The position numbers and the translations under genes were made by a program. 64,000 nt of DNA, from assembly GCA_016181765.1 (NCBI GenBank), contig JACOYR010000001.1:93062-157061 (forward strand), read 5' to 3'. The notes beneath the pieces are model-generated. The model ran no database searches, had not been told where the DNA came from, and was given only the letters and a program-made list of their open reading frames with translations. Position 1 is the first letter of the stretch. Each line of letters begins with the position of its first letter. Shown one piece after another: positions 32,987 through 63,932 of the stretch. This stretch comes from Parcubacteria group bacterium (GTDB lineage: Bacteria > Patescibacteriota > Patescibacteriia > UBA2169).

Positions 32987-33933
32987 CTGTGCTTGTAACC
33001 GGCTCTGCCGGATTCATCGGATTCCACGTTGCCAAATCCCTGCTTGACCGGGGCGATGTTGTGGTTGGCATTGACAACTTCAACTCCTATTATAACCCCA
33101 AACTCAAAGAAGACCGGAATGCGATTTTGGAAAAGTACGACAATTACAAACTTTACCGCGTTGACATCACGGACCGGAACTCACTCAACGATGTATTCAG
33201 TAAAGAAAAAATTGACATAGTGTGCCACCTCGCGGCCCAAGCAGGAGCGCGCTATTCCATTGATCATCCAGCCGAATACGTGCAAACAAACATTCAGGGC
33301 ACACTGAATATTTTTGAAGCGGCACGCGACCATGGCGTAAAAAACATTATATTTGCCTCAAGCTCTTCGGTGTACGGGAACAATCCGGTTCCTTGGAGCG
33401 AATCCCAGGCAGTTGACGAACCTATTAACCCATACGGTGCCTCAAAACGCGCAACTGAACTCTTAGCCTACACCTACCACACGCTGTACGGCCTCAATAT
33501 GACTGCCTTGCGTTTTTTTACGGTCTACGGCCCTTGGGGCAGGCCTGACATGGCTTACTTTAAGTGGACCCAGGCAATCACTAAAGGCGAGCCTATTGAT
33601 GTCTATAACAATGGCAACATGAAGCGCGACTTCACATACATTGATGACATTGTGGCAGGAACCCTGGCCGTGATTGACAATCCGAAGCCGTACGAAATCT
33701 ACAACCTCGGCAACCACGCCAGCGAAGAGCTTGGCGCTATGATTGGGCTGATTGAACGAGAGCTGAAAAAACAAGCGCAAAAAAATCTCCTGCCCATGCA
33801 AGCCGGGGACTTTTTAGAAAACTTTGCGGACATTACAAAAGCAAAACGCGACCTGGATTTTGAACCCAAAACGCGGCTAGAAGAAGGAATCAAAAAATTT
33901 GTGGCCTGGTACAAAGAGTACTACCAGCTATGA
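32983..33933 (+). CDS. UDP-glucuronate 4-epimerase-like NAD-dependent epimerase
   Basis: The 316 aa ORF has GSAGFIG, YGASK and the FFTVYGPWGRPDMA motif typical of UDP-GlcA/GalA epimerases. Confidence 0.7.
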
Positions 33934-34902
33934 TAAACGCTTGAGGTCCGCATCCATCATCATCGCAACCAACTCACTAAATGAAACTTTCGGCTCCCAG
34001 CCAAGTATGTGCTGGGATTTTCGGTAGTCCCCGCACAGGTCCTTCACGTCCGAAGGCCGTTTAAAACGCGGGTCTATAACCACATAGCGCTCCCAATCCG
34101 TGATTCCCGCATGCCGAAACGCGGCATCCACAAACTCCCGGACCGAATGCGACTCCCCGGTCGCAACCACAAAATTATCCGGCTCATTCTGCTGGAGCAT
34201 GAGCCACATGGCTTCCACCTCATCCCCGGCAAACCCCCAGTCGCGCTTGGCATCAAGATTTCCGAGCCGCAACTCGCTCGCTTTTCCGAGTTTGATGCGC
34301 GCCACGCCGTCCGTGATTTTCCGCGTCACAAATTCGCGCCCGCGGATTGGTGATTCGTGGTTGAAGAGGATGCCGTTGGCGCAAAACATGCCGTATGATT
34401 CTTTGTAGTTATTCACCATCCAGTAGGCATACAGCTTGCTGATGGCATACGGGCTCTGGGGCGCGAATGGCGACCCTTCGTTGAGAGGCTCGCCGTTGCC
34501 GGAATGCCCAAACATTTCGCTGGTTGATGCCTGGTAAAATTTGGTGGCCGGGCTGTGCAACTTGATTGCATTCAAAAGGTACAGCACCCCGAGCGCATTC
34601 ACCTCGGTGGTAAGTTTTGCCAAATGCCACGAAGAGCCTACGAACGACTGGGCCGCAAGATTATACACCTCATCCGGACGGATGTTTTTGATGACGTGAA
34701 TCAAGGAGGATTCATCGGTTAAGTCCCCGCTCACAAACTCAATCTGGTTCGTAACCCCGAGGTAATCCGTGTTCTCAAAGTTCGGATTCGTGTACCGCCG
34801 GATCATGCCATACACCTTGTAGCCCTTCGTAAGCAAGAGCTTGGCAAGGTACGGCCCGTCCTGGCCCAAAATCCCTGTGATGAGCGCTGTTTTTTGGTCC
34901 AT
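33928..34902 (-). CDS. gmd: GDP-mannose 4,6-dehydratase
   Basis: The start is the internal Met (MDQKTALITGILGQDGPYLAKLL). STSEMFG and YAISKLYAYWMVNNYKESYGMFCANGILFNHESPIRG are highly conserved Gmd blocks. Confidence 0.85.
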   Translation of the reverse strand: MDQKTALITGILGQDGPYLAKLLLTKGYKVYGMIRRYTNPNFENTDYLGVTNQIEFVSGDLTDESSLIHVIKNIRPDEVYNLAAQSFVGSSWHLAKLTTEVNALGVLYLLNAIKLHSPATKFYQASTSEMFGHSGNGEPLNEGSPFAPQSPYAISKLYAYWMVNNYKESYGMFCANGILFNHESPIRGREFVTRKITDGVARIKLGKASELRLGNLDAKRDWGFAGDEVEAMWLMLQQNEPDNFVVATGESHSVREFVDAAFRHAGITDWERYVVIDPRFKRPSDVKDLCGDYRKSQHILGWEPKVSFSELVAMMMDADLKRLS

Positions 34903-34906
34903 GAGG

Positions 34907-35584
34907 TTAATGGTTAGGATCAAACAACACCTCCTCTTGCGTCTGCCGGAGTTTGACAATTTTGTTTGATTCAATAAACCCGCGCAACACTGCGCCCGGG
35001 TAGCCATACACATTCTTGCCGATGAATGTGGCGGGCTGGGTCACGGTGTTGCATCCGAGCGAGCTTCCGTCCCCAATAATGGCTCCGATTTTCTCCAGGC
35101 CGGTTTTGACGCCCGCGACCTCAATCTCGTCCATGGTGACTTTTAAGTTGGAGAGCTTGGTGCCGGCGCCCAAATTGACCTTGTTGCCTAAAATACTATT
35201 CCCTACAAACGCGAAGTGCGGGGCGCGCGACTCATTCAGAAACACGGAACTGCCCACCTCGGATGCATGGCCAATGACTACGTGATCGCCGGTGAGCGTG
35301 TTGGCGCCAACGTACGCGCCATGCCTAATCTGGCAGTCCTCTCCGATAATGGCGGGCCCTGCCACCCATGCCCCGGGCTGTACCACGCTCCCTTTGCCAA
35401 GATAGACATTACTCCCGATAAACGCGCCGTCCATAACCTCCCCTAGAATCTCGGGCTTGAGGTTGTCTTTAATGTACTGTTCAAGACGCTTGATAAAATC
35501 AAACACATACTCGCTATTCTCAAATAGCGTTTTGTGCTTGAAATTTGAAAGGTCAAAGTAGTACGACAGGTCTCTTATTTCCAT
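34907..35584 (-). CDS. Hexapeptide-repeat (left-handed beta-helix) transferase, probably a sugar acyltransferase
   Basis: Repeating [LIV]-G-x-x-x-x hexapeptides run throughout the 225 aa ORF. Confidence 0.55.
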   Translation of the reverse strand: MEIRDLSYYFDLSNFKHKTLFENSEYVFDFIKRLEQYIKDNLKPEILGEVMDGAFIGSNVYLGKGSVVQPGAWVAGPAIIGEDCQIRHGAYVGANTLTGDHVVIGHASEVGSSVFLNESRAPHFAFVGNSILGNKVNLGAGTKLSNLKVTMDEIEVAGVKTGLEKIGAIIGDGSSLGCNTVTQPATFIGKNVYGYPGAVLRGFIESNKIVKLRQTQEEVLFDPNH

Positions 35585-36072
35585 ATTTTTAGAAAATCCT
35601 TAATGGCGCGCTGGTTGCTCTTGAAAGCTATTTTTTTCGGCATGTCTTTCTTCGCGAACCACTTGCTCTCAGACACGTCGTCAAACGCCCCGAGCGAGCT
35701 GGCTTTCGCCGCGGCAACATAAATGATGCACAGGGTGTGAAACGAATCAGAGCCGTGCGTATATTCATCCGGGTAAATGCCAAAAATTTTCTTTACGCTA
35801 ATGTCCAACCTGGTCTCTTCTTTCAGCTCCCGCACCACCGCGCGTTTTGGATCTTCTCCGCGGTCAATGAAGCCTCCAGGCAAATCCCATGATCCTTTAT
35901 ACGGCGCCCGGGCTCGCCTGGTCAAAAGTAGTTTATTCTTGTGCAGCACCAAAGCTGTTGCCGTAGGACGAGGATTTCGGTAGTTCACAAAATCGCACTT
36001 CGTGCACGCGAGATTATCGTCCGGCCGCAGCTTGAGTCGGCCGCCGCAGATTGAACAGAATTTATAAGACAT
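35575..36072 (-). CDS. NUDIX hydrolase with an N-terminal zinc ribbon
   Basis: Zinc ribbon CSICGG...CTKC plus the Nudix box GGFIDRGEDPKRAVVRELKEETRL. The start is uncertain (36072 or 36108). Confidence 0.7.
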   Translation of the reverse strand: MSYKFCSICGGRLKLRPDDNLACTKCDFVNYRNPRPTATALVLHKNKLLLTRRARAPYKGSWDLPGGFIDRGEDPKRAVVRELKEETRLDISVKKIFGIYPDEYTHGSDSFHTLCIIYVAAAKASSLGAFDDVSESKWFAKKDMPKKIAFKSNQRAIKDFLKIWK

Positions 36073-36116
36073 AGGGTGAATAATACATTTAATTATTATA
36101 ATCGACAAGTATTACT

Positions 36117-37046
36117 TTACTGTGCGCGAACAATTTTTTCTGCAATAATCAAATCAGTTACAGCTCTAGATTCTTGAGTAAACCCGCCGATATGGGGGGT
36201 GATGACAACATTGTTGTGCAATTTGGCATATTTGACGATTGGGTGGTTGGACGCATTGTTTCCAAATTCAGTCTCTCCTACTAGAACATCGGCCCCATAT
36301 CCGGCGATGATTTTATGCTCCAGCGCTTCCAATAAATCCGATTCATTCACTAGTGCTCCGCGGCTGGTATTGATGAGATAGGCACCGGATTTCATTTGTC
36401 TGAATGTTTCTTTATTAAATAAATCCTTGGTCTCTTCGTTGAGAGGCGCATGGATGGAAACAACATCGGACTCCGAAAGCAACATATTAAAATCAACAAT
36501 TTTGGCGCTATCAGACTCCTCCTTGTGTGGATCATGCGCTATAACGCGCATGCCAAATGCCTTGCCATACTGTGCCACCATGGAACCCAAACGGCCAAGT
36601 CCAACAATGCCGAGCATCTTTCCGGAAAGGTTATTGCCTAAAAATTTTTCCCTGCTCCAATTTCCGGATTTGACATCGTCAAATGATTCCGGAATGCGCC
36701 GCACAAGTGAAAGCAATAATCCAAACGCAAGCTCCGCGGTTCCGGTGACTTCACGTAAATCTTCATCCTGCAAACTTAATACTTCAATACCTTTCTCTTG
36801 CGCGTACGAAACATCAATATGGTCCAGTCCGGTTGTTGCGGTTGCGATAAGCTTTACATTAGGTCCGGCATCAATTATGCCCGCGTCCAAACGCAATCCA
36901 AGGCCAACGACAATTGCGTTACAATTTTTGATTGCGCCTTTAAGCTCGTCTTGCGCAAGCGCGCGATACTCAACTTCTCCGGCTTGCTCTAAAATCTTTT
37001 TCGCCTCAGGATTAAACTGATCTCCTATGGTATTAAGAATTTTCAT
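36117..37046 (-). CDS. D-isomer-specific 2-hydroxyacid dehydrogenase family protein
   Basis: GIVGLGRLG NAD-binding motif and a catalytic His region (ITPHIGG). Confidence 0.75.
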   Translation of the reverse strand: MKILNTIGDQFNPEAKKILEQAGEVEYRALAQDELKGAIKNCNAIVVGLGLRLDAGIIDAGPNVKLIATATTGLDHIDVSYAQEKGIEVLSLQDEDLREVTGTAELAFGLLLSLVRRIPESFDDVKSGNWSREKFLGNNLSGKMLGIVGLGRLGSMVAQYGKAFGMRVIAHDPHKEESDSAKIVDFNMLLSESDVVSIHAPLNEETKDLFNKETFRQMKSGAYLINTSRGALVNESDLLEALEHKIIAGYGADVLVGETEFGNNASNHPIVKYAKLHNNVVITPHIGGFTQESRAVTDLIIAEKIVRAQ

Positions 37047-37759
37047 ACTTTTTTTGAAAGTAAAAACTCTGCAAACTCCAAATCCTGCGGCTCGTTGATG
37101 TCAACAGAACGCTCGCTCGGCATACTATATGCACGCGACACCGTGCCGAACAAATCATTGTTCATAATATGCTCCGTCTTAGTAAGATAAATGGCGCAGT
37201 TGCGCTTGTATGCTTTTTTGCCGTTCTGCCGCAAGGCGGATGACGCGCCCTCATCGCCAAACAGAGGGCGGATAACGTCGCCGTCTATCTCTTTAACCTT
37301 AACCGGGTCAAAATCAGAAAGCGCAACCATGCTCATCACGGAATCCGCATCTGTCTCAACTGCTTTTTTGATAGCCGAGTCAATATCGTCCGCCGTGCGC
37401 AGAGGTGAAGTTGGTTGGAGAATCATTACATAATCATATGCTTGTCCCTCGTTATCCTTGAGCCATGCAAGCGCATGCTGGACAACAGGAAGGTGTGGCG
37501 TGTCATCTTGTGCGAGTTCAACAGGCCGCATAAACGGAATATCAGCTCCGTACTCACGACTTACCCGCGCGATTTCCTGATTATCTGTTGAGACAACGGT
37601 GCGTGTGAGCAACCGGCTTTTTTGCGCGGCATCAATCGTATACCAAATCAACGGCTTGCCGGAAAGCTCGGCAAGATTTTTGCGCGGAATGCTTGTTGAG
37701 CCGCCCCGCGCCGTGATAATGCCTATAATGCGCTTATCTTTGTACATACTAGTCAACAA
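37043..37759 (-). CDS. CMP-nonulosonate synthetase (acylneuraminate cytidylyltransferase family), copy 1
   Basis: IGIITARGGSTSIPRKNL...GKPLI is the NeuA/CTP_transf_3 N-terminal signature. Confidence 0.8.
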   Translation of the reverse strand: MLTSMYKDKRIIGIITARGGSTSIPRKNLAELSGKPLIWYTIDAAQKSRLLTRTVVSTDNQEIARVSREYGADIPFMRPVELAQDDTPHLPVVQHALAWLKDNEGQAYDYVMILQPTSPLRTADDIDSAIKKAVETDADSVMSMVALSDFDPVKVKEIDGDVIRPLFGDEGASSALRQNGKKAYKRNCAIYLTKTEHIMNNDLFGTVSRAYSMPSERSVDINEPQDLEFAEFLLSKKV

Positions 37760-38897
37760 ACTTTTTCTGCGAATACAATTTTATCTTGGCAAGCGTTTGC
37801 GCGATTTTGGCGCTGGTTCCTTTTTTGTAATAGATGGATGACGGCTCGTATGGCCCGTGGCTAACCTGCCGCTTGATGGCGCGCTTGATTTCAGCTTTGC
37901 CGTAACCAACGTCAACCACATTTCCAGCCCGCATGCGCCGGTTCTGGCGCGTGCCGATGTTCACCACCGGAACCCCGAGATATGAGCACTCTTTAATGCC
38001 GGCCGATGAATTGCCAACGAGGCATGACGCGCGCTTGAGAAGCCCAATGAACTGCTCCGGCGGCAAATGCTTGAGGAACCGCATGTGGTGCGGCTTTTTG
38101 AGCTCCCGAAACTCGCGGATTGCCTTGGAAACCTCGTCCGCGCCCGCGTCCACGTTCGGCCAGAACCAAACAGTCGGAATGTTAAGCGAACGGACGGCCT
38201 CAAGCGTTTCTGTAAGGTGAGCGCGGTTAGCGCCAATCTCACTCGTAACCGGGTGCTGCATTGCTATCAGAAACGGCTTGTCAATATCAACAACATCCCC
38301 CACGCCGAGCTGGTTGATGAGCTTCTCTGAAACGCGGAACCGATTGCGCGCCACGAACTCAATGTCAGTCGCACCCACGTTGAACACATACTTCGGATTC
38401 TCGCCCATGCGGATAATGCGCTCTGCCGACTGTTCATTAGTGGGAAAATGGATGTGGCTAAGCTTGCTAATGGCATGGCGCACGCTCTCGTCTATGGTGC
38501 CAGAAACGTCCCCGCCCTCTAGGTGCGCAACCGGAATGTTAAGGTATGCGGCAGCCACTGCGGCGGAGAGCACCTCGTACCGATCTCCGCGCACCACAAC
38601 AATGTCGGGCTTGAGGTTATCAAACGCGGTCGTAAATTCCATAATGCCAACACCCGCTGTTTTCGCCATGGCAACCGTGTTGCCGCCCTCAAGCGTCATG
38701 ACAATTTTATTGTTGACGGCAAAACCGTCACGTTCCAAATCATCCAAAACATTTCCATACATATCCAAGAGCGCGGAGGCGGCAACCACGATTGAAAGTT
38801 CCACGTCCGCGCGCTTGCGCAAGTGGAGAAGCACGAGCTTGCTGCGGCCGTAGTGGATTTTGGAAGTGATGACAAAACAAACTTTTCTCTTCTTCAT
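37749..38897 (-). CDS. Hydrolysing UDP-N-acetylglucosamine 2-epimerase (NeuC-type), copy 1
   Basis: The 382 aa ORF has blocks conserved in the NeuC family (DIVVVRGDRYEVLSAAVAAAYLNIPVAHLEGGDVSG; HFPTNE). Confidence 0.8.
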   Translation of the reverse strand: MKKRKVCFVITSKIHYGRSKLVLLHLRKRADVELSIVVAASALLDMYGNVLDDLERDGFAVNNKIVMTLEGGNTVAMAKTAGVGIMEFTTAFDNLKPDIVVVRGDRYEVLSAAVAAAYLNIPVAHLEGGDVSGTIDESVRHAISKLSHIHFPTNEQSAERIIRMGENPKYVFNVGATDIEFVARNRFRVSEKLINQLGVGDVVDIDKPFLIAMQHPVTSEIGANRAHLTETLEAVRSLNIPTVWFWPNVDAGADEVSKAIREFRELKKPHHMRFLKHLPPEQFIGLLKRASCLVGNSSAGIKECSYLGVPVVNIGTRQNRRMRAGNVVDVGYGKAEIKRAIKRQVSHGPYEPSSIYYKKGTSAKIAQTLAKIKLYSQKKFVD

Positions 38898-38902
38898 ATT
38901 GC

Positions 38903-39985
38903 TTAACTGATTGAATCAGCGGTTATGGGATCATATTTTTTAAAATCTTTTGCTGCTTTCTTGCCGACAACATTCTCATACTCCTCGGAGGGTAAACCCC
39001 CTGCGTACTGCTGCGGCCGCATGGCATACACCATCTCTTTGGTGATAACTGTCCCTGACGGGATGTCTTGTCCGGCCATAAGCGACTTCCTGAATACCGG
39101 GCGGAATGACTTTTCGTGTTCATCCATCTCCTTAATTCCCAAACCATACGGCGCACTATCGCGCCTTTCAGTCTTCTGAATGGCCCGTATCATTTCCCGC
39201 AACTCATCCGGAGTCTGCGAAACCTTGTGGTCCGAACCCCATAAATCACGGCTTGCGGTAAAATGTTTTTCAATAATAGCCGCACCCTTCTCAACTGCCA
39301 CAAGCGCCGCATCATATCCCAGTGAATGGTCGGAAAACCCAACCGGCACGCCGTACCGCTTCTTAAGGTATGGAATAGTGTCCAAAAACAATTCTTCCGG
39401 CGGGCACGGATATTTTGAGACGCAGTGCAGGATTGCAATCTTATCAGTCCGCTCTTTAAGGAACGCCACGGACCGATCCAGTTCTTCTATAGTGCTCATA
39501 CCCGAAGAAAGGATAATGGGCTTTTTTGTTTCCGCGAGATAATCAAGCAGTACGAAATCCAGCATATCCCCGGAGCCAACTTTCCAAAGTGGAAAATCAA
39601 GAGATGCAACGCGCTGTGCCGCGCCCCGGCTCATAGGCGTCGTGAACATCACGATATCCAAACTGTCTGCGTACTCTTTCAATGCTTTCCAGAATTCCAG
39701 CGGAGTTGCTTCGGTATTTCGTTTTACCCAAGAATATCGGTCTGCGCCGTCAAAATGCGGAGACGTAATCTGAATATTCAGCTGCTCATCTTCTACATTG
39801 TGCGTCTGAAACTTGACTGCGTCGGCGCCCGCGTCTTTTGCCGCCTTTATCAAATTCTTAGCATTTTCAAGATACACCTTGCGATCATCCTCTTCTTTCT
39901 GGATGAAATTCTTTCCAATTTCCGCAACCACAAACACGCCTTCTTGTGTCTTCTTCCAAATTACATCATGGTCGCGCATATGCAT
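38903..39985 (-). CDS. NeuB-family nonulosonic acid synthase (N-acetylneuraminate, legionaminate or pseudaminate synthase), copy 1
   Basis: TIM-barrel synthase motifs (AEIGKNF; KFQT; GFSDHS) and a C-terminal SAF domain. Confidence 0.8.
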   Translation of the reverse strand: MHMRDHDVIWKKTQEGVFVVAEIGKNFIQKEEDDRKVYLENAKNLIKAAKDAGADAVKFQTHNVEDEQLNIQITSPHFDGADRYSWVKRNTEATPLEFWKALKEYADSLDIVMFTTPMSRGAAQRVASLDFPLWKVGSGDMLDFVLLDYLAETKKPIILSSGMSTIEELDRSVAFLKERTDKIAILHCVSKYPCPPEELFLDTIPYLKKRYGVPVGFSDHSLGYDAALVAVEKGAAIIEKHFTASRDLWGSDHKVSQTPDELREMIRAIQKTERRDSAPYGLGIKEMDEHEKSFRPVFRKSLMAGQDIPSGTVITKEMVYAMRPQQYAGGLPSEEYENVVGKKAAKDFKKYDPITADSIS

Positions 39986-39988
39986 CTG

Positions 39989-42638: not shown

Positions 42639-42662
42639 GGTATCATCTGTGAAGCTGAAAAT

Positions 42663-43343: not shown

Positions 43344-43360
43344 TGCTAATCACACTCTTG

Positions 43361-45557: not shown

Positions 45558-45567
45558 GGCAAAAAAA

Positions 45568-46593: not shown

Positions 46594-46640
46594 ACAGTTC
46601 ACGCCGCTTAATAACAAATAATAAATACTCTTCCGCCAAG

Positions 46641-47045: not shown

Positions 47046-47055
47046 ACAGTTCTTG

Positions 47056-48830: not shown

Positions 48831-48835
48831 AATAG

Positions 48836-56059: not shown

Positions 56060-56089
56060 ATACTTGTTAGGATTGGTTTAATGAATTAA

Positions 56090-57523
56090 TTATGCCGGTA
56101 GGCGCTTCCGCGAGCCATCTTCTAATATTTCATCTAAATAATCAACCATTCTCCGGGAAGATTTCCCGTCTACTTTATAACAAAGTTTCTCGCGCAATAA
56201 TGCCCTTTCTTGCGCTTTGTGTGTCGGGTTGTGCAAGTAGCCGTCTATCGCTTCTTTTAATGCGGCTGGAGTGTCCACTTTTGTTGTTGCTTCTGTTTCT
56301 AATACCCAAGTAAAATGATCAGAATCATACATCGTTGAAGTAATGTCTTTCCCGTTTCTATCCCCATCCTCATAGACGCAACCAAAACCAATGTTTATGA
56401 TTGGCTTATCAAAACAGGCGGCATCTAGTGTTAGCGTAGAAGCGGCATTAATCATAATATCACAGTGATAAAGCGTATTAACAAAATCAATGATTTCTTC
56501 CTTGTCTGGATCCCACCTATCCGGCATAAAATCAACTATCCGGTAGTCGTCTACGGCAACTCCTTTTTTATTTCGTAATTTTTTAAAAATATCCATATAT
56601 GCGTTAGTGTAATGGGCTCGCACCACTAATTGGCAAGGTTTTGTTAATTCGTTATTTGTCATCCATCCATATATCATTTCCGCAACTTCGTGGTCGCGTG
56701 TCGCCCAAACGCCCTCGGAGCCGAAAAAAATTAATGGAAGCGCCGGATCCAGGCCTTTCTTTTTAAAATGTTCTTCGCGGCTTTTAATAATATCTTCCCG
56801 AACATACCAATCAAACTGAGGAATGCCAACAATACGCACTCTTCTGGCAGGAATATTCTGCAGGTAAACTCCGGCATCTCTTGATGGTTTGTTTGGAACA
56901 ATAAAATAATCCGGCAAAAATTGCATGTATCCCACTGTTATATTGTCCCAACTTTTTGGCATGGAAACTACCGGAATCCTTCTCCGTTTCGCTTCTTTTA
57001 TGAAACTGGTATCCAGGTAAGACACAAAAGATGTGGAAAGTGCTATATTCGGCTTATATGTATCAAAATAAAATTGAATTTGGGGATGTTTTTGCGCAAA
57101 AAACTTTTGTTCTATAAACCGGTATAAATGTTTTATAGTTGTACTTTTACTCATGAGTATTAAATAAAGGTAACGCAGCCAAGGGATAATTTTTGTCTGT
57201 TTCAAAAATTTTTTTGAGGCAAAACGGGTTTTGGCGTTTTCATTAAAATCAAACGCGGAATGTTTCGCTGATTTGCTTAAAAGCAGATACCTAAAACTAA
57301 ATTTCGTAAATATGCGGTGCAATCGTGTTGAAGCAACCTGAACCGGAACTAATGTTACCTGATCATCTTCAAATTCATCTTTCAAATACGCAGGTATCTT
57401 CTTGGCTGGAAAAAAAACAAAAACACTGTAACCCTTCTTTTTAAGCAAATCCAACACTCCGCAACGCAAAATGTTTCTGGTGATGAATGATCTGGTAATG
57501 GTGATAAAAATCGTTTTCCGCAT
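56090..57523 (-). CDS. Putative GT-B-like transferase (TagF-like or capsule-type), paralog 2
   Basis: It shares IPVVSMPKSWDN, FFGSEG and NAASTLTLDAA blocks with the ORF at 44163-45557. The start is the internal Met (MRKTIF). Confidence 0.45.
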   Translation of the reverse strand: MRKTIFITITRSFITRNILRCGVLDLLKKKGYSVFVFFPAKKIPAYLKDEFEDDQVTLVPVQVASTRLHRIFTKFSFRYLLLSKSAKHSAFDFNENAKTRFASKKFLKQTKIIPWLRYLYLILMSKSTTIKHLYRFIEQKFFAQKHPQIQFYFDTYKPNIALSTSFVSYLDTSFIKEAKRRRIPVVSMPKSWDNITVGYMQFLPDYFIVPNKPSRDAGVYLQNIPARRVRIVGIPQFDWYVREDIIKSREEHFKKKGLDPALPLIFFGSEGVWATRDHEVAEMIYGWMTNNELTKPCQLVVRAHYTNAYMDIFKKLRNKKGVAVDDYRIVDFMPDRWDPDKEEIIDFVNTLYHCDIMINAASTLTLDAACFDKPIINIGFGCVYEDGDRNGKDITSTMYDSDHFTWVLETEATTKVDTPAALKEAIDGYLHNPTHKAQERALLREKLCYKVDGKSSRRMVDYLDEILEDGSRKRLPA

Positions 57524-57524
57524 A

Positions 57525-58379
57525 TTATAATGCCTCCAGCACAAACCCCACTTTGCGATGGCCGAATCCGCCCATGTTAAACGGCACGAGTAGCTCTACA
57601 TCGCCAACGTCGTTTTTGAGCGCGCGATTATCTGGAGTGTCTGTTTTTATGGCAACGCGGGAGAGGAGCTTAAATCCCGACTCGATAAAAAAATGTTCTA
57701 ATTCTTGATAGCGCCACTCATGCTCGCCGTTGTCGCGACGCGTCAAGGTCATGTTTTCATCAAGGTAATTTTTCCGCAGATACTCTTTGTCGTACACAAT
57801 ATTGAGCATACGCTCAATTTCCGAATCAGGAGTGCTGTTGTTGTGCGCTCGGTCGATAATAACAAGCCTGCCTCCCTTTTTAAGCACGCGGCGGCACTCG
57901 GAAAGTGTTTTCACGGGCTCGTACGAATGGTGGATGGAATCCCAGGAAACCGCAAAATCCATGCTCGCGTCCGGAAGCTCCAGATTGTTAAAGTCCCCAA
58001 CCACGGAAACAATTTTATCCGCGCGGTCGCCAAGAATGCTTTGTTTGATAATGGGCTGGCACAGCTTAACCAGCTCTTCGGTGTATTCCACGCAATGGAT
58101 GTCTTTAACTTCTTCTTTCCGCGCGATGATGGAGGAAATGCACGCAATACCGCCGCCCAGATCCACACCGCGGCCTTGAAAACTATCCCATGCCAATGGA
58201 AGGAGTTTGAATGTCTTTTCCACATCCTCGGGGGTAATAAAAATATATTGGATAGCAATGTCGCGGTAATGCTTGCCCGCGAGTTCATGCGCCAAGGTCT
58301 TTCCAACCAAAAACTCATGCTCATTGATTGGCTGCTGAATTTTTTTCCAAACTTGGTAGGTGTTGTTTTGCATACGCAC
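57525..58379 (-). CDS. Class I SAM-dependent methyltransferase
   Basis: Motif I is GVDLGGGIA and the acidic post-I residue is HCVEYTEE. Confidence 0.65.
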   Translation of the reverse strand: MRMQNNTYQVWKKIQQPINEHEFLVGKTLAHELAGKHYRDIAIQYIFITPEDVEKTFKLLPLAWDSFQGRGVDLGGGIACISSIIARKEEVKDIHCVEYTEELVKLCQPIIKQSILGDRADKIVSVVGDFNNLELPDASMDFAVSWDSIHHSYEPVKTLSECRRVLKKGGRLVIIDRAHNNSTPDSEIERMLNIVYDKEYLRKNYLDENMTLTRRDNGEHEWRYQELEHFFIESGFKLLSRVAIKTDTPDNRALKNDVGDVELLVPFNMGGFGHRKVGFVLEAL

Positions 58380-58382
58380 AAA

Positions 58383-58961
58383 TTACTTTTGACGGGCCAG
58401 CAGCTGGGCTTCGGCCTTTTTAAAATCTTCTTCAGTATGGATATCAACGGCATCGTCGACAATCAGCAGTTCCGGCTCCGGATTCCACGCGTCAAGATAA
58501 TTCTCCAAACGTTCCCGCGAAAGCGCCCACACGGAGCCGTACACGCAATTTTTTGGCTCGTAGCCGCGGATTGGGTATGTGGTCATGATTTCATTATACC
58601 CATAACGCTCCATAAGCTCTTTTGTTTGCTGGATGATTTCCGACCTGGTTGTCGGTGAGTCCGCCTTGACCGCGACAATGCCATCCGGGTTGTCCATGTG
58701 TTCAAAAGCGTGTTGGTACACATCAATGTTCGGCACATCGCTTTTGCATAGCTCGACCGGCCGCTTAATGGGGCAGGCGCCGAGCTTTTTGCTTTCTTCA
58801 AGAATAAAATCCGAATCAGAGCTTACATACACCTCATCAAACAAATCAAGGCACTTTTCCAAATTCCACACAAACATTGGTTTGCCGCAAAAATCCCTGA
58901 AATTTTTATCCGGCAAACGCTTGCTTTCTTTTTTGGCTATCATGAGTGCAACGGTTCTCAT
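58383..58961 (-). CDS. Short cytidylyltransferase-like protein (CTP_transf_3-like), copy 3
   Basis: MIAKKESKRLPDKNF...GKPMF resembles the NeuA/PseF N-terminus. The protein is shorter at 192 aa. Confidence 0.5.
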   Translation of the reverse strand: MRTVALMIAKKESKRLPDKNFRDFCGKPMFVWNLEKCLDLFDEVYVSSDSDFILEESKKLGACPIKRPVELCKSDVPNIDVYQHAFEHMDNPDGIVAVKADSPTTRSEIIQQTKELMERYGYNEIMTTYPIRGYEPKNCVYGSVWALSRERLENYLDAWNPEPELLIVDDAVDIHTEEDFKKAEAQLLARQK

Positions 58962-59608
58962 ACAATCTCCGGAGCTGCGCCATAGTTTGCGCGGATGCGC
59001 AAATGGCGGTGAATATTAAAACCTTTTTTGCTTTTGGCTTTCCAGTCGCAATACCGGCCAACGTATATCTGGTCGCCATTGCCATCCGTGTCTGAACACC
59101 AGATAAAATCATGTTTCCAGAGCGTGCCACCTTTTGTGTGCAGATAGTACGCAAAAAAGGTAAACGCGGCGAGTATTGCTGATGGAAACAATTTCCGGCC
59201 TTTTATGCGCGATGGCTCCTTGCCGCGCGTTGCGGATTTGATACTCGCGCTGACCAGGTGCCATTGCGCTCCCAAAGCCTGAGATGCAAATCTTTCTTTA
59301 AGGTACCAGTCCTGATTATAAAAACACGGCTGTTTTTTTGGATTCATCCCGAACCGATTACGCATATTGTTGATGGTTACATTTTTGCCGCTCTTAAACT
59401 TTGGAACACCCAGAATCAACACAGCGCTTGCGCGGTACTTTTTAAGTGTCTGCGCGGAAAAAGGAATTTTCGGTGATTTTAATACGCGCGCAATGCTCAG
59501 TTGTGAACTGATTGCATTAAGCTCATCCGGCCCAATAAAATTCCTGCCCATTATTTTTTTAGCTACTGCAATATCCATATATGACGTTATGCTTGCGCCT
59601 CTTTCCAT
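58958..59608 (-). CDS. Hypothetical protein
   Basis: The 216 aa ORF is in-operon with 4-nt overlaps. No family recognised. Confidence 0.4.
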   Translation of the reverse strand: MERGASITSYMDIAVAKKIMGRNFIGPDELNAISSQLSIARVLKSPKIPFSAQTLKKYRASAVLILGVPKFKSGKNVTINNMRNRFGMNPKKQPCFYNQDWYLKERFASQALGAQWHLVSASIKSATRGKEPSRIKGRKLFPSAILAAFTFFAYYLHTKGGTLWKHDFIWCSDTDGNGDQIYVGRYCDWKAKSKKGFNIHRHLRIRANYGAAPEIV

Positions 59609-60174
59609 TCTTGATATTTGAATGCGTCTTGGATTGATGCGACATGGCCCCTTGCGGAATATTCCTCTATCTTTTGAATCTCGCCTTCAAACAATTCTTT
59701 GCGATTCTTGTCAATGACTTTTGCAAACCACGCCAAATCTCGTGCGGGCGAATTATATATCTGAATCTTGAGATTGGCGTTTTTCATTGCCTGTAAAAAT
59801 GTGAGGTATGCCCGCAACTGGTGATAGTGTGAAGCAACCAGAATGATTTTCTGCCAACCGCGCTCGGCAATAATTTTCATAACTTCCGTACCTTGTTCAA
59901 ATGTGTTTTGTGATGCCGATTCAAGAATGATCTTTTCTTTGGGAATGTCTCTTGCGTACAGTTCCTCAGCAAGTCCCGGGGCTGGAATGGCAACTTCCGG
60001 GTTTCCCTCAAATCCACCCGAAACCACGACATAATCCGCGAGTCCTTGTTCAAAAATTCGAATAACTTCATCACGTCGCGCCAAACCATCCCCCTCAAGC
60101 AAAACAACTGCATCAGATTTTTTCACCGTGTCATTGCTCACGATAGCGACAATTATTGCAAGTTCTGTATTCAT
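59587..60174 (-). CDS. DUF218/YdcF-like (SanA/ElyC-family) protein
   Basis: The pattern DAVVLLEGDG...VVVSGG...ILVASHYHQLRA is consistent with DUF218. Confidence 0.55.
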   Translation of the reverse strand: MNTELAIIVAIVSNDTVKKSDAVVLLEGDGLARRDEVIRIFEQGLADYVVVSGGFEGNPEVAIPAPGLAEELYARDIPKEKIILESASQNTFEQGTEVMKIIAERGWQKIILVASHYHQLRAYLTFLQAMKNANLKIQIYNSPARDLAWFAKVIDKNRKELFEGEIQKIEEYSARGHVASIQDAFKYQEWKEAQA

Positions 60175-60178
60175 ACAT

Positions 60179-61243
60179 TTAAGCCACATCATCCCACTTA
60201 ATTGGCTCGCCCGCAGAAATGTCGCGCTTAGCCGGTTTGCCGATAATGTCTTTTTTGTGTTTCGGCAGAATACCGAGTGCCGGACGCAGTTCTATGACAT
60301 TCTCTCCACTAAATGCCTCGCCCTTTTTGACATCAACCTTGGCGCACAAACCGCGCCGCTGGACAATCACGGTTTCCGATTCTTCGGGGACAACTTCTTT
60401 TTTTGCGCTTCCGAGCGCTTGCTCCATCTCCCTGACTCTCCGGACCATTGCGCCAAACTCTTTTGGGTCCATTGAATGCGGATGATCCGGCCCGTGCGCG
60501 CTCTTATCAAGCGTAAAGTGCTTTTCAATCACTTTGCCGCCGAGCGCAATTGAGCCGAGCACCACCGTGTCCCCTGGCGTGTGGTCCGAGTATCCGGTAA
60601 TAATGCCATAGGATTCCTGGTACGTCTTTAGTACATTTAGGTTTGCGCTCTCGATTTTTGAAGGATAATTGGTAATGCATTGCAAAAGCGCCAAATCTAT
60701 ATTGCCGGTTGCGGCAATGGCGGCAACTGCCTCATCCACTTCCGCGAGTGTTGATGCTCCGGTGGCAAGAATTACCGGCTTTCCTTTGCGGGCAATGTAC
60801 TCAAGCATTTCAAGCCAGGTAATGTCCCCGGAGCCGATTTTATAAAAATCAACTCCGCATTCTTCCATAAGGTCAACCGCCTCAAAATCGTACGGCGCGC
60901 TGGATGCCATAATGCCGATTGATTTGCAGTAGTCAAAAAACTCTTTATGCCACTCGCGAGGAAATTCCGCTTCTTTAAAAATTTCATCGACTGGCCTGCC
61001 CCAGCTGCCGTGCACGCCTTTGAGTTGCATGGACGCAAAACCTTTGCCGGATACGATCTTGGGCGCGAGAAAGCTTTGGATTTTAACCACATCGCCGCCC
61101 GCTTGTTTGACCGCCAAAGCAAGCTCCTTTGCCTTATCCAAATTGCGGTCAAAATTCGCGCCAATATCAGCAATAATCAGTGCTGGCTGACCTTCGCCGA
61201 TTAACCTGCCCCCTATATTGATTGTTTTGGGAAAATTATACAT
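60179..61243 (-). CDS. NeuB-family nonulosonic acid synthase, copy 3
   Basis: The start is the internal Met (MYNFPKTINIGGRLIGEGQPALIIADIGANF). It has GYSDHT and a C-terminal SAF domain. Confidence 0.75.
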   Translation of the reverse strand: MYNFPKTINIGGRLIGEGQPALIIADIGANFDRNLDKAKELALAVKQAGGDVVKIQSFLAPKIVSGKGFASMQLKGVHGSWGRPVDEIFKEAEFPREWHKEFFDYCKSIGIMASSAPYDFEAVDLMEECGVDFYKIGSGDITWLEMLEYIARKGKPVILATGASTLAEVDEAVAAIAATGNIDLALLQCITNYPSKIESANLNVLKTYQESYGIITGYSDHTPGDTVVLGSIALGGKVIEKHFTLDKSAHGPDHPHSMDPKEFGAMVRRVREMEQALGSAKKEVVPEESETVIVQRRGLCAKVDVKKGEAFSGENVIELRPALGILPKHKKDIIGKPAKRDISAGEPIKWDDVA

Positions 61244-61247
61244 ACGC

Positions 61248-62024
61248 TTACGTAATCGTAAACCCTCCATCAACCGGTATGACCGCGCCGGAGATATAGC
61301 GCGAAGCATCGCTCGCCAAGAAAACCACAACGCCTTTTATGTCATCGGCCTCTGCCATGCGGCCCAGAGGAACTTTTTTAGTATACTGCTCAACAAACCG
61401 CTCGCTCTGATTATTAAACAACCCGCCCGGCGCAATACAGTTAACTCTGATGCCGTCTTTTGCAAGCAGAGAAGCCAGATACTTGGAAAACATAATCATG
61501 CCGCCCTTGTGATACGGATAATCCGGCTCTGTCTGCAAATCTGTCCTTTGGTAGACATTCTGATCCGGCGCAACCAATCCATAGATTGAGCTGACGTTGA
61601 TAATTGAGCCGCCTTTCTCTTTCATTGCTCGCGCGAATGCACGGCAGGTGATAAAGAGGCCGCGGGCGTTTACGGCCATGGAGCGATCCCAATTTTCTAC
61701 GGTATCGTCAAAAAATTTCTTCATAGGCCGCTCCACAGCACAATTGACCAGGATATCCGGCGTCTTGAATTTCTTGGTAACCTCCTGCAAGCACGATACG
61801 ACGCTGGCCTCGTCTGACTGGTCCATCGCAAACCCTTCAGCAATCAGACCTTGCGCCTTTAATCTGCCGGCCGCATCATCACACCGTTCTTTACTCTTGG
61901 ACGCAACGCACACATTCGCTCCTGCCTCTGCCAAGGCCTCGCTGATGGGGAGTCCGATTTTGCCGGCCCCGCCAATAACCACCGCACATTTCCCCTGCAA
62001 TGAATATAAATCCCTAATATGCAT
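61248..62024 (-). CDS. SDR-family oxidoreductase (FabG-like)
   Basis: VVIGGAGKIG, NVSS and YxxxK (YHKGGMIMFSK). Confidence 0.8.
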   Translation of the reverse strand: MHIRDLYSLQGKCAVVIGGAGKIGLPISEALAEAGANVCVASKSKERCDDAAGRLKAQGLIAEGFAMDQSDEASVVSCLQEVTKKFKTPDILVNCAVERPMKKFFDDTVENWDRSMAVNARGLFITCRAFARAMKEKGGSIINVSSIYGLVAPDQNVYQRTDLQTEPDYPYHKGGMIMFSKYLASLLAKDGIRVNCIAPGGLFNNQSERFVEQYTKKVPLGRMAEADDIKGVVVFLASDASRYISGAVIPVDGGFTIT

Positions 62025-62907
62025 ACTGACCTTCTAAAATTACGTTTGCTATCTTAACGGTATCGTTATACGAAACCGGCCTTTTTCCGGTTTCAACCAT
62101 ATTCACAAATGATTCCAGCATCTTGCGGAAACTGTAGAAGAAATCCGTAAACGGAACAACATACGGCTCTCTGTCTGCGGAAAACACCGTGAACTGAATG
62201 GGCAAATGCGCGTCTTTAATGCACTCCAGTATCACATTCAAACCTGATCGATATTTAATTTGGACAATATCGTGATCTTTTTTGCCTGGCAGAGGTTTGA
62301 CTGACTCAATATCTAATCCGAATATCTCCGCAATTCCCTCAAGTAAGTGGTGCCCATACCGCATCCACGATTCCCGGCTTACGCCGTGGACTGTCCGGAC
62401 AGAACCAAGATCTATGTCTTTTTTTGCTTTTGCAACGTCCCGTGTAAACCGGGAACTAGAGCCCGCCATAAACGGATATTCCAGGCCGGTCAGCTTTTCG
62501 AATTCGACAAGCTCCTGCTTGGTTGCCGCAATTTGCTTATCAATAAACAGCGGCACGCGCTTTTCTAAAAATGGCTTTGCCATCTCTAAATGATTCTCTA
62601 CATCATCCCGCGCAAGAATGACCGCATCAACCTTTCCGATTAAATCCGTATAATTATCAACGATATTCTGAATCTTTGATACTGCGGCAACATCTTCTGA
62701 AAGCTTCTTATCCTGCGTCCAGACGTGCGTGACTTTCGCGCTATCAAGCATGTTCTCGTTGCGGTGCTCACGGGGCAAATATTCGCGGATCAGCTCATAC
62801 GGACAGCGCTTTTCCAGCTCGCCGGGATCATACCCGTTAAAAATCGCGGAATACGAAAACGGATGCCCGTTGCCTTCGTTTAATCCTATAATGCCTAAGG
62901 TAATCAT
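62014..62907 (-). CDS. Putative oxidoreductase (divergent Gfo/Idh/MocA-like)
   Basis: N-terminal GIIGLNEGNGH Rossmann-like start. The family is uncertain. Confidence 0.4.
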   Translation of the reverse strand: MITLGIIGLNEGNGHPFSYSAIFNGYDPGELEKRCPYELIREYLPREHRNENMLDSAKVTHVWTQDKKLSEDVAAVSKIQNIVDNYTDLIGKVDAVILARDDVENHLEMAKPFLEKRVPLFIDKQIAATKQELVEFEKLTGLEYPFMAGSSSRFTRDVAKAKKDIDLGSVRTVHGVSRESWMRYGHHLLEGIAEIFGLDIESVKPLPGKKDHDIVQIKYRSGLNVILECIKDAHLPIQFTVFSADREPYVVPFTDFFYSFRKMLESFVNMVETGKRPVSYNDTVKIANVILEGQYAY

Positions 62908-63932
62908 ATATTCTCACCGCCGTCGACGTGTACTTTAATCAGCTCCCTAAGCTGTTCAGCCGAAAGCCATTCTTTGTTCTTGTCGCTTGTATACTCAAAC
63001 CCTTCTGCGCATCTGCTGCCTCCGAATTCTTGAATGTATTCCTCTTCGGACCACTTTTTTCGGGATGGCATAATAGCGAAACGGTCGCCAAAATCCACCG
63101 CCGAAAGCGAATCGTTTGCGGTTATCATTTCTTCGTGCAGTTTTTCGCCGGGGCGGACGCCGATTACCTCCTGTTTACAGTCAGGCGCGACCGCGGTTGC
63201 CAGGTCCGTAATTTTGTAGCTTGGGATCTTTGGGATAAATATCTCCCCGCCCCACATGCGGCTTAGGGTTTCCAGGACAAAACGCGCGCCCTGTTCTGCG
63301 GTAATATTAAAACGCGTCATCCGCGGATCCGTAACTGGCAGCACGCCCGAACCCTGCCGCTCGATAAAGTACGGGATCACGCTCCCCCTGCTTCCCATAA
63401 CATTGCCGTAGCGAACTACGGAAAATGCAATGTCCCGGCTGCCTTTAAAGTTATTGGCTGCCACAAACAGCTTGTCCGAACACAGTTTAGATGCTCCGTA
63501 CAGGTTAATAGGCGCTGCCGCCTTATCTGTGGAGAGCGCCACAACTTTTTTAACACTGGAATCAAGGCACGCCTCAATCACGTTCTGCGCGCCCATAATG
63601 TTGGTCTGTATGCACTCAAACGGATTGTACTCGGCGGTAGTAACCTGTTTTAAGGCCGCGGCATGGATTACGTAATCAATGCCTTCCATGGCCCGCCGCA
63701 GGCGGGCCTGATCGCGCACGTCACCGATAAAGTAGCGCATTTTGGCGTCGCGTCCGTACTCCCCGGCCGGATACTGCTTGGCCATTTCGTACTGCTTAAG
63801 CTCGTCACGCGAATAAATAACAACTCTCCGCACGCCGGGATACTGCTCGTGAATCACTTTCACCAGCGCATGGCCGAGAGATCCTGTCCCTCCGGTAATA
63901 AGTATGGAAGCGTTTTGTAAAGTAGTATCCAT
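62904..63932 (-). CDS. UDP-N-acetylglucosamine 4,6-dehydratase (PseB/FlaA1-like), paralog 2
   Basis: ILITGGTGSLG, YSRDELKQ and YGASK are strongly PseB-like. Confidence 0.8.
   Translation of the reverse strand: MDTTLQNASILITGGTGSLGHALVKVIHEQYPGVRRVVIYSRDELKQYEMAKQYPAGEYGRDAKMRYFIGDVRDQARLRRAMEGIDYVIHAAALKQVTTAEYNPFECIQTNIMGAQNVIEACLDSSVKKVVALSTDKAAAPINLYGASKLCSDKLFVAANNFKGSRDIAFSVVRYGNVMGSRGSVIPYFIERQGSGVLPVTDPRMTRFNITAEQGARFVLETLSRMWGGEIFIPKIPSYKITDLATAVAPDCKQEVIGVRPGEKLHEEMITANDSLSAVDFGDRFAIMPSRKKWSEEEYIQEFGGSRCAEGFEYTSDKNKEWLSAEQLRELIKVHVDGGENI

Follow-up and report, generated by a model that had tools for sequence, protein, structure and literature searches.

Genes for nonulosonic acids (NulOs), the sialic-acid-like nine-carbon sugars of pseudaminic (Pse), legionaminic (Leg), or neuraminic type, have been described in several bacterial systems, among them the flagellar island and neuB1 of Campylobacter jejuni and C. 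coli, the sps locus of Bacillus subtilis, the NulO genes of Tannerella forsythia, K loci of Acinetobacter baumannii, and group 2 capsule systems. Here these are compared with an array of 33 consecutive minus-strand genes (a split carbamoyltransferase counted once) that runs from position 63932 down to 33928 of a 64,000-nucleotide stretch of DNA, the window, from a Parcubacteria group bacterium (contig JACOYR010000001.1, positions 93,062 to 157,061; assembly GCA_016181765.1). The array contains three modules, A (63932-58383), B (54373-45568), and C (42638-36117), each with its own NeuB-family synthase and its own CMP-transferase. It is probably the main portion of an island for surface glycans that spans at least 40 kb on a single strand and carries three old, non-redundant NulO modules in a bacterium of the Candidate Phyla Radiation (CPR). 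CPR, or Patescibacteria, have genomes of about 1 Mb, are without many biosynthetic pathways, and live attached to host cells.

Campylobacter resembles the array in having three NeuB paralogs in one small genome, Pse-type and Leg-type genes in a single long locus, and WbuX/PseA-type amidotransferases and methyltransferases (PseA/PtmG, PtmH) for N-acyl tailoring; PseA and PtmG are the genes reported for the acetamidino groups of Pse and Leg (PMC5378307). Unlike Campylobacter, the array has a Leg module of apparently UDP-based instead of GDP-based type, whose dehydratase is short and CapE-like; its module A lacks PseC, PseH, and PseG; its host is a CPR bacterium; and its neighbors are a KpsC-like gene and an ABC exporter. 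A flagellar glycosylation island is ruled out, because Pfam detects neither Maf (PF01973) nor flagellin among the scanned open reading frames (ORFs) of the window or among the precomputed upstream matches.

The B. subtilis sps locus (SpsM/C/D/G/E/F) shares with the array a synthase, SpsE, that is the closest relative of NeuB#2 (module B) with a solved structure; a short CapE/PseB-like dehydratase; and a TagB/TagF-like GT-B gene, SpsB, beside the NulO genes. SpsE is reported to be genetically required for Leg synthesis, and SpsM shows that a short CapE/PseB-like dehydratase is able to catalyze the initial, retaining reaction when Leg is made by a UDP-based route (PMC7439481). The sps gene set as listed there names no NeuC-type hydrolyzing epimerase, whereas the window uses this type, together with a second and a third synthase module and a much larger number of tailoring genes. 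In the O-glycan loci of T. forsythia, as in the array, the NulO genes adjoin TagB-like GT-B proteins, which there are genetically supported transferases of Pse and Leg derivatives (PMC5420450). The T. forsythia sugar Pse5Am7Gra bears acetimidoyl and glyceroyl groups, and module C of the array pairs an amidotransferase trio with a glycerate/2-hydroxyacid dehydrogenase-like gene. Unlike the array, T. forsythia strains have Pse or Leg rather than several such sugars, and there is no pseA/ptmG homolog.

The A. baumannii K loci resemble module A in placing an adh_short_C2 short-chain dehydrogenase/reductase (SDR), a second reductase, and a short CTP_transf_3 domain by a Pse-type start. EpaA and EpaB convert Pse to its 8-epimer (8ePse), and the NulO epimerization enzymes EpaB and AciE belong to the same Pfam family, adh_short_C2, as the module A SDR (PMC12053666). 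EpaA, however, is a cytidylyltransferase fused to an aldo-keto reductase, while the module A reductase is GFO-like and separate, and a phage-database search for relatedness of the module A SDR to EpaB/AciE returned only generic SDR matches (32-35%). Group 2 capsule systems, which depend on an ABC transporter and have the beta-Kdo transferases KpsC/KpsS, are like the array in having a Capsule_synth-like gene, an ABC exporter, and CMP-ulosonic-acid genes next to one another, an adjacency that is kept across CPR loci. Unlike these systems, the array's exporter is a fused ABC_membrane+ABC_tran protein rather than KpsM/KpsT, no KpsD or KpsE is seen, the similarity to KpsC is weak and local, and no outer membrane is known from CPR, the group of the host.

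Gene calls in the array were checked with Pfam and NCBIfam profiles, and NCBIfam equivalog cutoffs were used for class assignment. An earlier interpretation made from the letters alone (the sequence-only reading) had described about 30 minus-strand genes, many with short overlaps, including three NeuB, two NeuC, and three cytidylyltransferase genes. All of these are present where it placed them, with Pfam and NCBIfam support, and the junctions between genes are indeed overlaps of 4-11 nt or else gaps of no more than 47 nt. Its other calls (DegT, hexapeptide acetyltransferase, PIG-L, WbqC, GFO, SDRs, 2-hydroxyacid dehydrogenase, Gmd, NUDIX, and a left-handed beta-helix (LbH) protein) are likewise borne out. 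The start of the array at 63932 has to be given up, since the window boundary cuts through a series of same-strand genes that extends 10 kb or more further; with this upstream part, the co-directional block is at least 40 kb, about 12% of the 335-kb contig. At its 3' end, the array is convergent with a plus-strand gene (32983-33933). Within the array, the modules are separated by tailoring genes (methyltransferases, carbamoyltransferase) and TagF-like GT-B proteins. The G+C content (GC) is 41-52% in the array and 52-59% in the flanks, and GC at third codon positions (GC3) is 0.37-0.68 vs 0.58-0.74; being lower and more uneven in the array, GC3 suggests that the array is a mosaic, exchange-prone island. 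A scan of the window for tRNA and tmRNA genes finds none.

The case for three modules begins with the synthases. All three NeuB ORFs have a NeuB domain and a C-terminal SAF domain (SAF E-values 3e-7 to 8e-12). When they are aligned with N. meningitidis NeuB, C. jejuni PseI (8h2c), and B. subtilis SpsE (1vli) from Protein Data Bank (PDB) alignments, residues K53, Q55, K129, S132, Y186, S213, H215, E234, H236, D247, and R314 (N. meningitidis numbering; R314 lies in the SAF domain) are kept in all three. We take these positions to be the metal and phosphoenolpyruvate ligands known from the NeuB structure (1XUZ). Two further positions carry Asp instead of Glu: E25 in NeuB#3 and E134 in each of the three synthases. 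Thus, the ORFs are NeuB-family synthases, as had been proposed, and not divergent TIM barrels of other function. The three are only 30-39% identical to one another. The other paralog pairs of the array are as far apart (24-40%), with 39% for NeuC1/NeuC2, 34% for the long CMP-transferases, 40% for the dehydratases, and 28% for the TagF-like proteins. Recent duplicates or pseudogenes are ruled out by this divergence together with the intact catalytic residues.

The phylogeny that the sequence-only reading had called for places the three copies in three separate, well-populated clades, in a neighbor-joining tree that is rough (100 bootstraps, only three characterized references). NeuB#1 falls in a clade of CPR sequences (96% support) that is weakly joined to N. 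meningitidis NeuB (51%); NeuB#3 falls in a clade with 99% support that does not join C. jejuni PseI; and NeuB#2 groups, at low support, with SpsE-type sequences. With the catalytic residues intact, identities of 30-39%, and three separate clades, the three synthases are old, non-redundant paralogs.

Module B looks like a Leg-type pathway. It starts with a CMP-NulO synthetase (53657-54373; PF02348 E = 1e-24; PseF model 170 bits, below the 206 cutoff) and a GFO/IDH/MocA oxidoreductase (52656-53660) with three GFO domains and a 74% ortholog in a related locus, L032. The synthase that follows, NeuB#2 (51589-52659; Pfam NeuB E = 1e-91 plus SAF), is of legionaminic/neuraminic type: it passes the TIGR03569 cutoff (434 bits vs 399.65) and does not pass that of PseI (298 vs 340), and among PDB entries B. 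subtilis SpsE (1vli, 222 bits) matches it best. An extended SDR of epimerase/dehydratase-like type (50667-51599; PF01370 E = 1e-41) reaches no NCBIfam equivalog, and a WbqC-family protein (49984-50670; PF08889 E = 3e-77) is paired with PIG-L also in L032 and the overlapping locus L033. NeuC2, a NeuC/LegG-type hydrolyzing 2-epimerase (48836-49987; TIGR03568 441 bits vs cutoff 236), is closer to N,N'-diacetylbacillosamine (diNAcBac) 2-epimerase structures (5xvs/5zlr, 259 bits) than to GNE (201). The remaining genes encode a DegT-family sugar aminotransferase (47727-48830; PF01041 E = 3e-98; below the PseC, LegC, and DesI cutoffs), a PIG-L/LmbE-type de-N-acetylase (47056-47730; PF02585 E = 3e-24), a hexapeptide acetyltransferase similar to NeuD/PglD (46641-47045; Hexapep E = 9e-16; NeuD_NnaD model 72 bits), and a PseB/CapE/Pen-like short UDP-GlcNAc 4,6-dehydratase (45568-46593; PF02719 E = 3e-107). 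This dehydratase stays below the PseB cutoff (341 vs 408) and, by its PDB matches (6bwc 280, PseB 261, PglF 170 bits), is closer to Pen/PseB/CapE than to PglF. All six functions of a UDP-based Leg-type pathway are thus contiguous in 45568-54373, with GFO, SDR, WbqC, and PIG-L as extras. By these assignments, module B is the only complete canonical pathway of the three, the stereochemistry of its dehydratase being putative. The proposal of three parallel pathways is thus not established, since the full set of canonical functions is confined to module B.

Module C opens with the three genes that the sequence-only reading had named as an acetamidino-forming WbpG/HisH/HisF trio. The WbuX/PseA-type N-acetyl sugar amidotransferase (39989-41242; TIGR03573 347 bits vs cutoff 203) and the HisH-like glutaminase subunit (41239-41874; TIGR01855 201 bits vs 105) are above their cutoffs, and the HisF/WbuZ-like cyclase subunit (41871-42638) falls just under both of its own (hisF model 292 vs 295; WbuZ model 284 vs 300). 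With this one marginal member, the trio constitutes a WbuX/WbuY/WbuZ (PseA-type) acetamidino-forming system. It is followed by NeuB#1 (38903-39985; Pfam NeuB E = 5e-70 plus SAF), a divergent NulO synthase that scores 267 bits with the NeuB model and 239 with the PseI model, both below cutoff, and has CPR homologs at 58-71% identity. NeuC1 (37749-38897) is a NeuC-type hydrolyzing 2-epimerase (TIGR03568 381 bits vs 236) with orthologs at 77-80% in loci L031 and L033; in the PDB it is marginally nearer GNE (226 bits) than the diNAcBac epimerase 5zlr (215). A CMP-NulO synthetase (37043-37759; PF02348 E = 2e-21; PseF model 153 bits) and a D-2-hydroxyacid/phosphoglycerate dehydrogenase-like protein (36117-37046; PF02826 E = 2e-55; PGDH model 228 bits) complete the module; the dehydrogenase likewise follows the CMP-transferase in L033, at 67% identity. 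Pfam and NCBIfam detect no dehydratase, aminotransferase, or acetyltransferase gene in module C. The three types of the N-acetylneuraminic acid (Neu5Ac) pathway are represented (NeuC at 381 bits, a NeuB-family protein at 267, below cutoff, and CTP_transf_3), so that NeuC, NeuB, and the CMP-transferase would formally make a complete Neu5Ac-type set.

Module A is built around a different start and a different synthase. Its first gene encodes PseB, the inverting UDP-GlcNAc 4,6-dehydratase (62904-63932; TIGR03589 510 bits vs cutoff 408; identical to MBI2050330.1). The idea of two PseB-type dehydratases in the array holds in that both proteins are Polysacc_synt_2, but only this one passes the PseB equivalog cutoff. 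Next come a GFO/IDH/MocA-like oxidoreductase with a weak match (62014-62907; PF01408 E = 7e-6; orthologs at 70-73% in L031 and L025), a classical adh_short_C2 SDR (61248-62024; PF13561 E = 1e-47), and the NulO synthase NeuB#3 (60179-61243; Pfam NeuB E = 4e-80 plus SAF), which gives 306 bits with the NeuB model and 299 with the PseI model, both below cutoff, and has PseI (8h2c, 199 bits) as its best PDB match. Downstream of the synthase are a DUF218 protein (59587-60174; PF02698 E = 3e-16), found beside a NeuB#3-type synthase in at least 12 loci; a 206-residue protein with no Pfam domain and a predicted FGE/C-type-lectin-like fold (58958-59578); and a short cytidylyltransferase-like protein for CMP-sugars (58383-58961, 192 residues; PF02348 E = 7e-14; PseF model 67 bits), whose PF02348 match covers only the first 115 or so of 217 profile positions. 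The FGE-like family has about 1000 members, almost all from CPR, with invariant Cys85, Cys161, and His190, and always adjoins a NeuB#3-type synthase and DUF218. By Pfam and NCBIfam, module A has no DegT, GNAT, or Glyco_tran_28 protein, and so none of the PseC, PseH, and PseG types. A canonical Pse pathway (PseB, C, H, G, I, F) is consequently not present: PseB reaches 510 bits, and the synthase and cytidylyltransferase stay below cutoff.

In nearly all members of the NeuB#3 clade (L018 keeps the Glu), the usual motif A-E-x-[GS]-x-N-H is replaced by A-D-[IL]-G-[AG]-N-F. In NeuB#3 (60179-61243) and in loci L011-L026 and L031, this motif sits at the position of the canonical active-site motif.

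Upstream of PseB, a 67.7-kb contig from a Logan assembly (L007, 1-10000) extends the island on the same strand. The first gene encodes a Capsule_synth (KpsC/KpsS-like) protein of 513 residues, with a weak Pfam match to Capsule_synth (PF05159) and similarity to KpsC structures (E = 3e-5) over about 60 residues. It is followed by a fused ABC_membrane+ABC_tran exporter and a membrane sulfatase-like protein. A 467-residue methyltransferase-like protein and a 77-residue membrane peptide are without clear function, and farthest upstream are two NTP-transferase fusions, one with a TylF methyltransferase and one with a DHQS/Fe-ADH_2-like domain. Taken with the three modules, this arrangement suggests a route in which the cell would produce different CMP-activated NulOs, two at the least and probably three, including one of Leg type and one that is acetamidino-modified. 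CMP-dependent GT-B enzymes (the two TagF-like proteins and the upstream KpsC-like protein) would transfer them, three transferases for three CMP-sugars, to a lipid-linked or cell-surface glycan, which the adjacent ABC transporter would export.

The sequence-only reading had looked for the acceptor among Ser/Thr-rich surface proteins or a polysaccharide. The KpsC-like protein, the ABC exporter, and a Wzy_C-TPR protein would point to a lipid-linked glycan or polymer at least as much as to the Ser/Thr-rich proteins. The Wzy_C protein (19880-22207, minus strand; PF04932 E = 3e-20), of the O-antigen ligase/O-oligosaccharyltransferase family with C-terminal TPR repeats, is tentatively assigned to the array; seven CPR loci (L013-L018, L020) have a homolog no more than 10 kb away from a NeuB#3 module, and the protein may act as the ligase that joins glycan and acceptor. 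The Ser/Thr-rich candidates are two secreted or membrane-anchored proteins at 27337-29247 (minus strand) with a high content of Thr, Ser, Ala, and Gly and, in one of them, a stretch of some 13 glycines. Pfam assigns no domain to either, and the related loci compared have no homologs of them.

The layout is not confined to one genome. A scan with NeuB#3 of the Genome Taxonomy Database (GTDB) species representatives, which do not include the window's own genome, gives 17 loci, mostly from metagenome-assembled genomes (MAGs) of Patescibacteria, Saccharibacteria, and Paceibacterota at 62-79% identity. Most of them have the run NeuB#3-DUF218-206-residue protein, often together with a PseB-like protein, a KpsC-like protein, and an ABC exporter. 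The order of all three modules recurs, at 60-80% identity, in at least two other CPR-type populations. In the first, the Logan contig L031 (whose TagF-like protein P0153 is also found in an NCBI MAG labeled 'bacterium', tags Q8Q23_046xx), the order is ABC, KpsC-like, PseB, GFO, SDR, NeuB, DUF218, a protein without assignment, CTP, methyltransferase, TagF, with an opposite-strand deacetylase and a short ORF between SDR and NeuB; then WbuX-like, CTP, NeuB, NeuC, Hexapep, DegT, dehydratase, HisF, HisH, deacetylase, NeuC. Its proteins are mostly 61-77% identical to those of the window, with a few genes lower. The second is represented by overlapping loci on a 158,933-bp ENA contig and a 104,576-bp JGI contig (L032/L033). 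Here, the first module is Pse-type, with DegT and a TagF+GNAT fusion; the second reads CTP, GFO, NeuB, NeuC, DegT, WbqC, PIG-L, ATP-grasp, AKR, DegT, dehydratase; and the third has a TagF-like protein, an Asn-synthase-type amidotransferase, a NeuB#1-type synthase, NeuC, CTP, and the 2-hydroxyacid dehydrogenase, before a sulfotransferase and genes for synthesis of 3'-phosphoadenosine 5'-phosphosulfate. Since L031 and L032/L033 carry the whole layout, the three-synthase array is a recurrent CPR architecture, in which the core is kept and tailoring genes (carbamoyl-, sulfo-, and methyltransferases, amidotransferases, and an ATP-grasp enzyme) are swapped between populations. The locus had been called unusual; its tailoring set is non-standard, but it is not unique.

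In L033, the stretch after the module C genes (13847-20514) encodes a sulfotransferase, a fused ATP-sulfurylase/APS-kinase, and an AMP-binding enzyme, which hints at sulfated variants of the NulO or glycan in these relatives. Another relative, L025, is a 7.8-kb contig labeled Gammaproteobacteria and has the closest GTDB relatives of NeuB#3 (86%), the GFO-like protein (73%), and the SDR (77%), with an additional segment of GFO, DegT, and a protein without assignment between PseB and the GFO-like gene. It reflects either horizontal transfer or a mis-binned CPR contig.

Several observations weigh against an island of three NulO modules in a CPR cell. Modules A and C are incomplete by canonical rules, and the whole 74 kb (the window plus 10 kb upstream) has a single aminotransferase. 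NeuB#1 and NeuB#3 are below both equivalog cutoffs (PseI 340; NeuB/LegI 399.65). The TagF-like proteins are structurally as near to UDP-GlcNAc 2-epimerases/NeuC as to TagF/TarL, and the TagB-like SpsB of B. subtilis is dispensable for Leg transfer. The carbamoyltransferase is frameshifted in this genome, its N and C domains not lying in a single frame. Finally, the CPR label rests on the depositor's binning, and the same window has an RND pump.

The role of the TagF-like proteins in the proposed route can also be read differently. Protein 2 (56090-57523; PF04464 23.0 bits) is a candidate CMP-NulO transferase or nucleotide-sugar hydrolase; protein 1 (44163-45611; PF04464 26.6 bits, with a weak MGDG_synth match) has a 60% ortholog in L033. 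Both of the TagF-like paralogs that had been proposed are present, but their assignment by sequence is weak: the matches score 26.6 and 23.0 bits (E = 4e-6 and 5e-5), with the gathering threshold at 22.1; an AlphaFold2 model gives the GT-B fold. A role as CMP-NulO transferases is favored, if only slightly. A less likely alternative is that they are UDP-sugar hydrolases doing the job of PseG, or true CDP-glycerol glycerophosphotransferases for a teichoic-acid-like polymer. Module A is without NeuC or PseG, and a PseG-like hydrolase would fill this gap; moreover, some homologs are fused to GNAT, the PseH-type enzyme that acts just before PseG, and the upstream NTP-transferase-DHQS/Fe-ADH_2-like fusion and membrane sulfatase-like protein might relate to glycerophosphate chemistry. 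However, most family members match PF04464 rather than Epimerase_2 or GT28, and their motif order, G-x-P-x-x-D ... R-P-H ... S-T-x-x-x-D, resembles that of TagF (in an alignment read by eye). T. forsythia provides a genetic precedent for transferases, and there are two paralogs, yet only one module without a hydrolase. The GNAT fusions themselves, proteins of about 620-630 residues, are homologs of TagF-like protein 2 (P0143, P0161, P0162, P0166, P0174; L032, 10001-11881); such a fusion would fit either a PseH-PseG-like pairing or an acetylating transferase.

The single aminotransferase bears on how many different sugars the three synthases can serve. The one DegT in 74 kb belongs to module B, and no second aminotransferase turned up elsewhere in the window; hence, unless early steps are shared between modules, the products cannot all be 5,7-diamino sugars. 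One possible, though doubtful, way of sharing is a branched pathway, in which the early enzymes of module B supply one pool of UDP-2,4-diacetamido-trideoxyhexose that feeds the NeuC/NeuB/CMP sets of both B and C. These two modules would then give differently N-acylated Leg-type sugars (5,7-diacetyl and acetamidino), and module A would use the same aminotransferase or be non-functional, leaving one or two backbones rather than three. Such branching is consistent with the single DegT, with the lack of early enzymes in module C, with the position of HisF/HisH directly after the module B dehydratase in L031, and with the fact that NeuC1 is nearly as near the diNAcBac epimerase (215 bits) as GNE (226). 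On the other hand, NeuC, NeuB, and a CMP-transferase suffice for a Neu5Ac-type route from UDP-GlcNAc, for which module C needs no early enzymes. Module A, for its part, has a true inverting PseB (510 bits), whose product differs in stereochemistry from the Leg precursor, and its gene order is kept in L031 at 61-72% identity, which argues against decay.

Beyond the reading of three old modules, a more ambitious version is conceivable, although on balance unlikely: module A would make a NulO type not yet described, with DUF218 and the FGE-like protein as new pathway enzymes, and three NulOs would be displayed, each with its own CMP-dependent GT-B protein (the KpsC-like and the two TagF-like). 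A 5-acetamido-7-hydroxy-9-deoxy sugar, formed by reduction rather than amination of the 4-keto product of PseB, is one possibility for the module A product.

It is very improbable that the island is not from CPR at all, but mis-binned or recently transferred from a diderm such as a gammaproteobacterium: the AcrB/HlyD efflux pair in the window, the GC and GC3 differences between flanks and array, and the closest GTDB relative of NeuB#3 in a MAG labeled Gammaproteobacteria would fit such an origin, but array and flanks are on one 335-kb contig labeled Parcubacteria, NeuB#1, NeuB#3, and the FGE-like and TagF-like proteins have their close named homologs in CPR MAGs, the 'Gammaproteobacteria' contig is only 7.8 kb with a weak bin assignment, and RND and HlyD-like proteins also occur in monoderms. 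The array proteins are identical to MBI2050284-MBI2050330 (locus tags HYT31_00xxx) of the Parcubacteria group bacterium MAG, on a contig of 334,869 bp, so that the attribution of the locus to a compact genome holds, and the same locus is found in Logan assemblies of SRR121133xx-SRR121134xx runs. A run of the same series, SRR12113421, is the source of Ca. Azoamicus agrarius. The samples of the SRR121134xx data set presumably come from groundwater, and the name agrarius suggests an agricultural setting.

Of the tailoring genes between the modules, three had been taken for SAM methyltransferases. Two are clear: methyltransferase 2 (57525-58373; Methyltransf_11 E = 2e-15; 71% ortholog in L031) and methyltransferase 1 (43361-44173; Methyltransf_11 E = 2e-23). 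The third (42663-43328) is a probable but weak case, with no Pfam match, a KsgA-like similarity (E = 1.4e-5), and a GxGxG-type motif, LEMGGGIG. An ORF of 146 codons (43336-43776) that overlaps a methyltransferase out of frame and has no family match is probably spurious.

The NodU/CmcH-type carbamoyltransferase (54366-56059) is split by a -1 frameshift, its Carbam_trans_N and Carbam_trans_C domains being on two overlapping ORFs (55466-56059 and 54366-55589) with the shift near 55658-55680. The split is real, as had been supposed, and recurs in independent Logan assemblies (L001, L003, L034); the frameshifted sequence is uninterrupted in SRR12113430, SRR12113431, and the NCBI MAG. One extra base at 55659/55658 (...ACG AT? 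AAC CAT CAT...) would join the two frames. Other assemblies are interrupted at precisely this point: in samples SRR12113424 and SRR12113384, L035 and L037 stop at 55659 and L002 and L004 begin at 55658, as does L005 from SRR12113385. Because the breaks fall at the frame-restoring position, they suggest an on/off indel polymorphism of the carbamoyltransferase in the population. No intact allele was observed; JGI metagenome contigs, scanned by pattern, contained neither allele (0 matches).

The last genes of the array, downstream of module C, encode a NUDIX hydrolase (35575-36108; PF00293 E = 2e-20), an LbH acetyltransferase domain that resembles archaeal-type GlmU in its C-terminal half (34907-35584; Arch_glmU positions 221-392, 138 bits), and the GDP-mannose 4,6-dehydratase Gmd (33928-35013; PF16363 E = 4e-123), all on the minus strand. 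The Gmd ORF (361 residues) has a Cys/Arg-rich N-terminal extension of 43 residues that overlaps the preceding gene by 107 nt; since the Pfam match begins only at residue 43-44, the true start is probably internal, later than called. Elsewhere in the window, the flanks have further envelope and glycan genes, including GT2, GT4, UDP-glucose dehydrogenase, and a Bac_transf initiating transferase, as well as a subtilase. The genes at 22174-27226 encode a membrane-fusion protein similar to HlyD and a complete RND transporter of the AcrB family (643 bits); Parcubacteria are not expected to have an outer membrane. A D12-class N6-adenine DNA methyltransferase and a 287-residue protein at 1967-4011 lie in a patch of 38% GC (52-58% around it), which may be a restriction-modification or mobile insert.

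Each component of the array has precedents. New are the CPR host and the conserved three-module layout beside a KpsC-like protein and an ABC exporter, as well as a module that starts with PseB, lacks amination genes, and centers on a synthase clade of its own, with DUF218 and FGE-like partners found across CPR. To date, the array genes have only automatic GenBank names, and a limited full-text literature search pairing NulO terms with CPR, Patescibacteria, or Parcubacteria returned no paper describing such an array. The surface chemistry of CPR is central to their biology, given their attachment to host cells, and is almost unknown. That some 40 kb are devoted to up to three sialic-acid-like sugars, in a three-module layout kept at 60-80% identity in other CPR populations, suggests that NulO-rich surfaces are a selected trait in CPR, one that may serve host attachment, phage evasion, or immune-like masking. 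Several families in the locus are uncharacterized, namely the NeuB#3 clade and its DUF218 and FGE-like partners, and the CPR TagF-like GT-B proteins are candidates for the still poorly known transferases of Pse and Leg.

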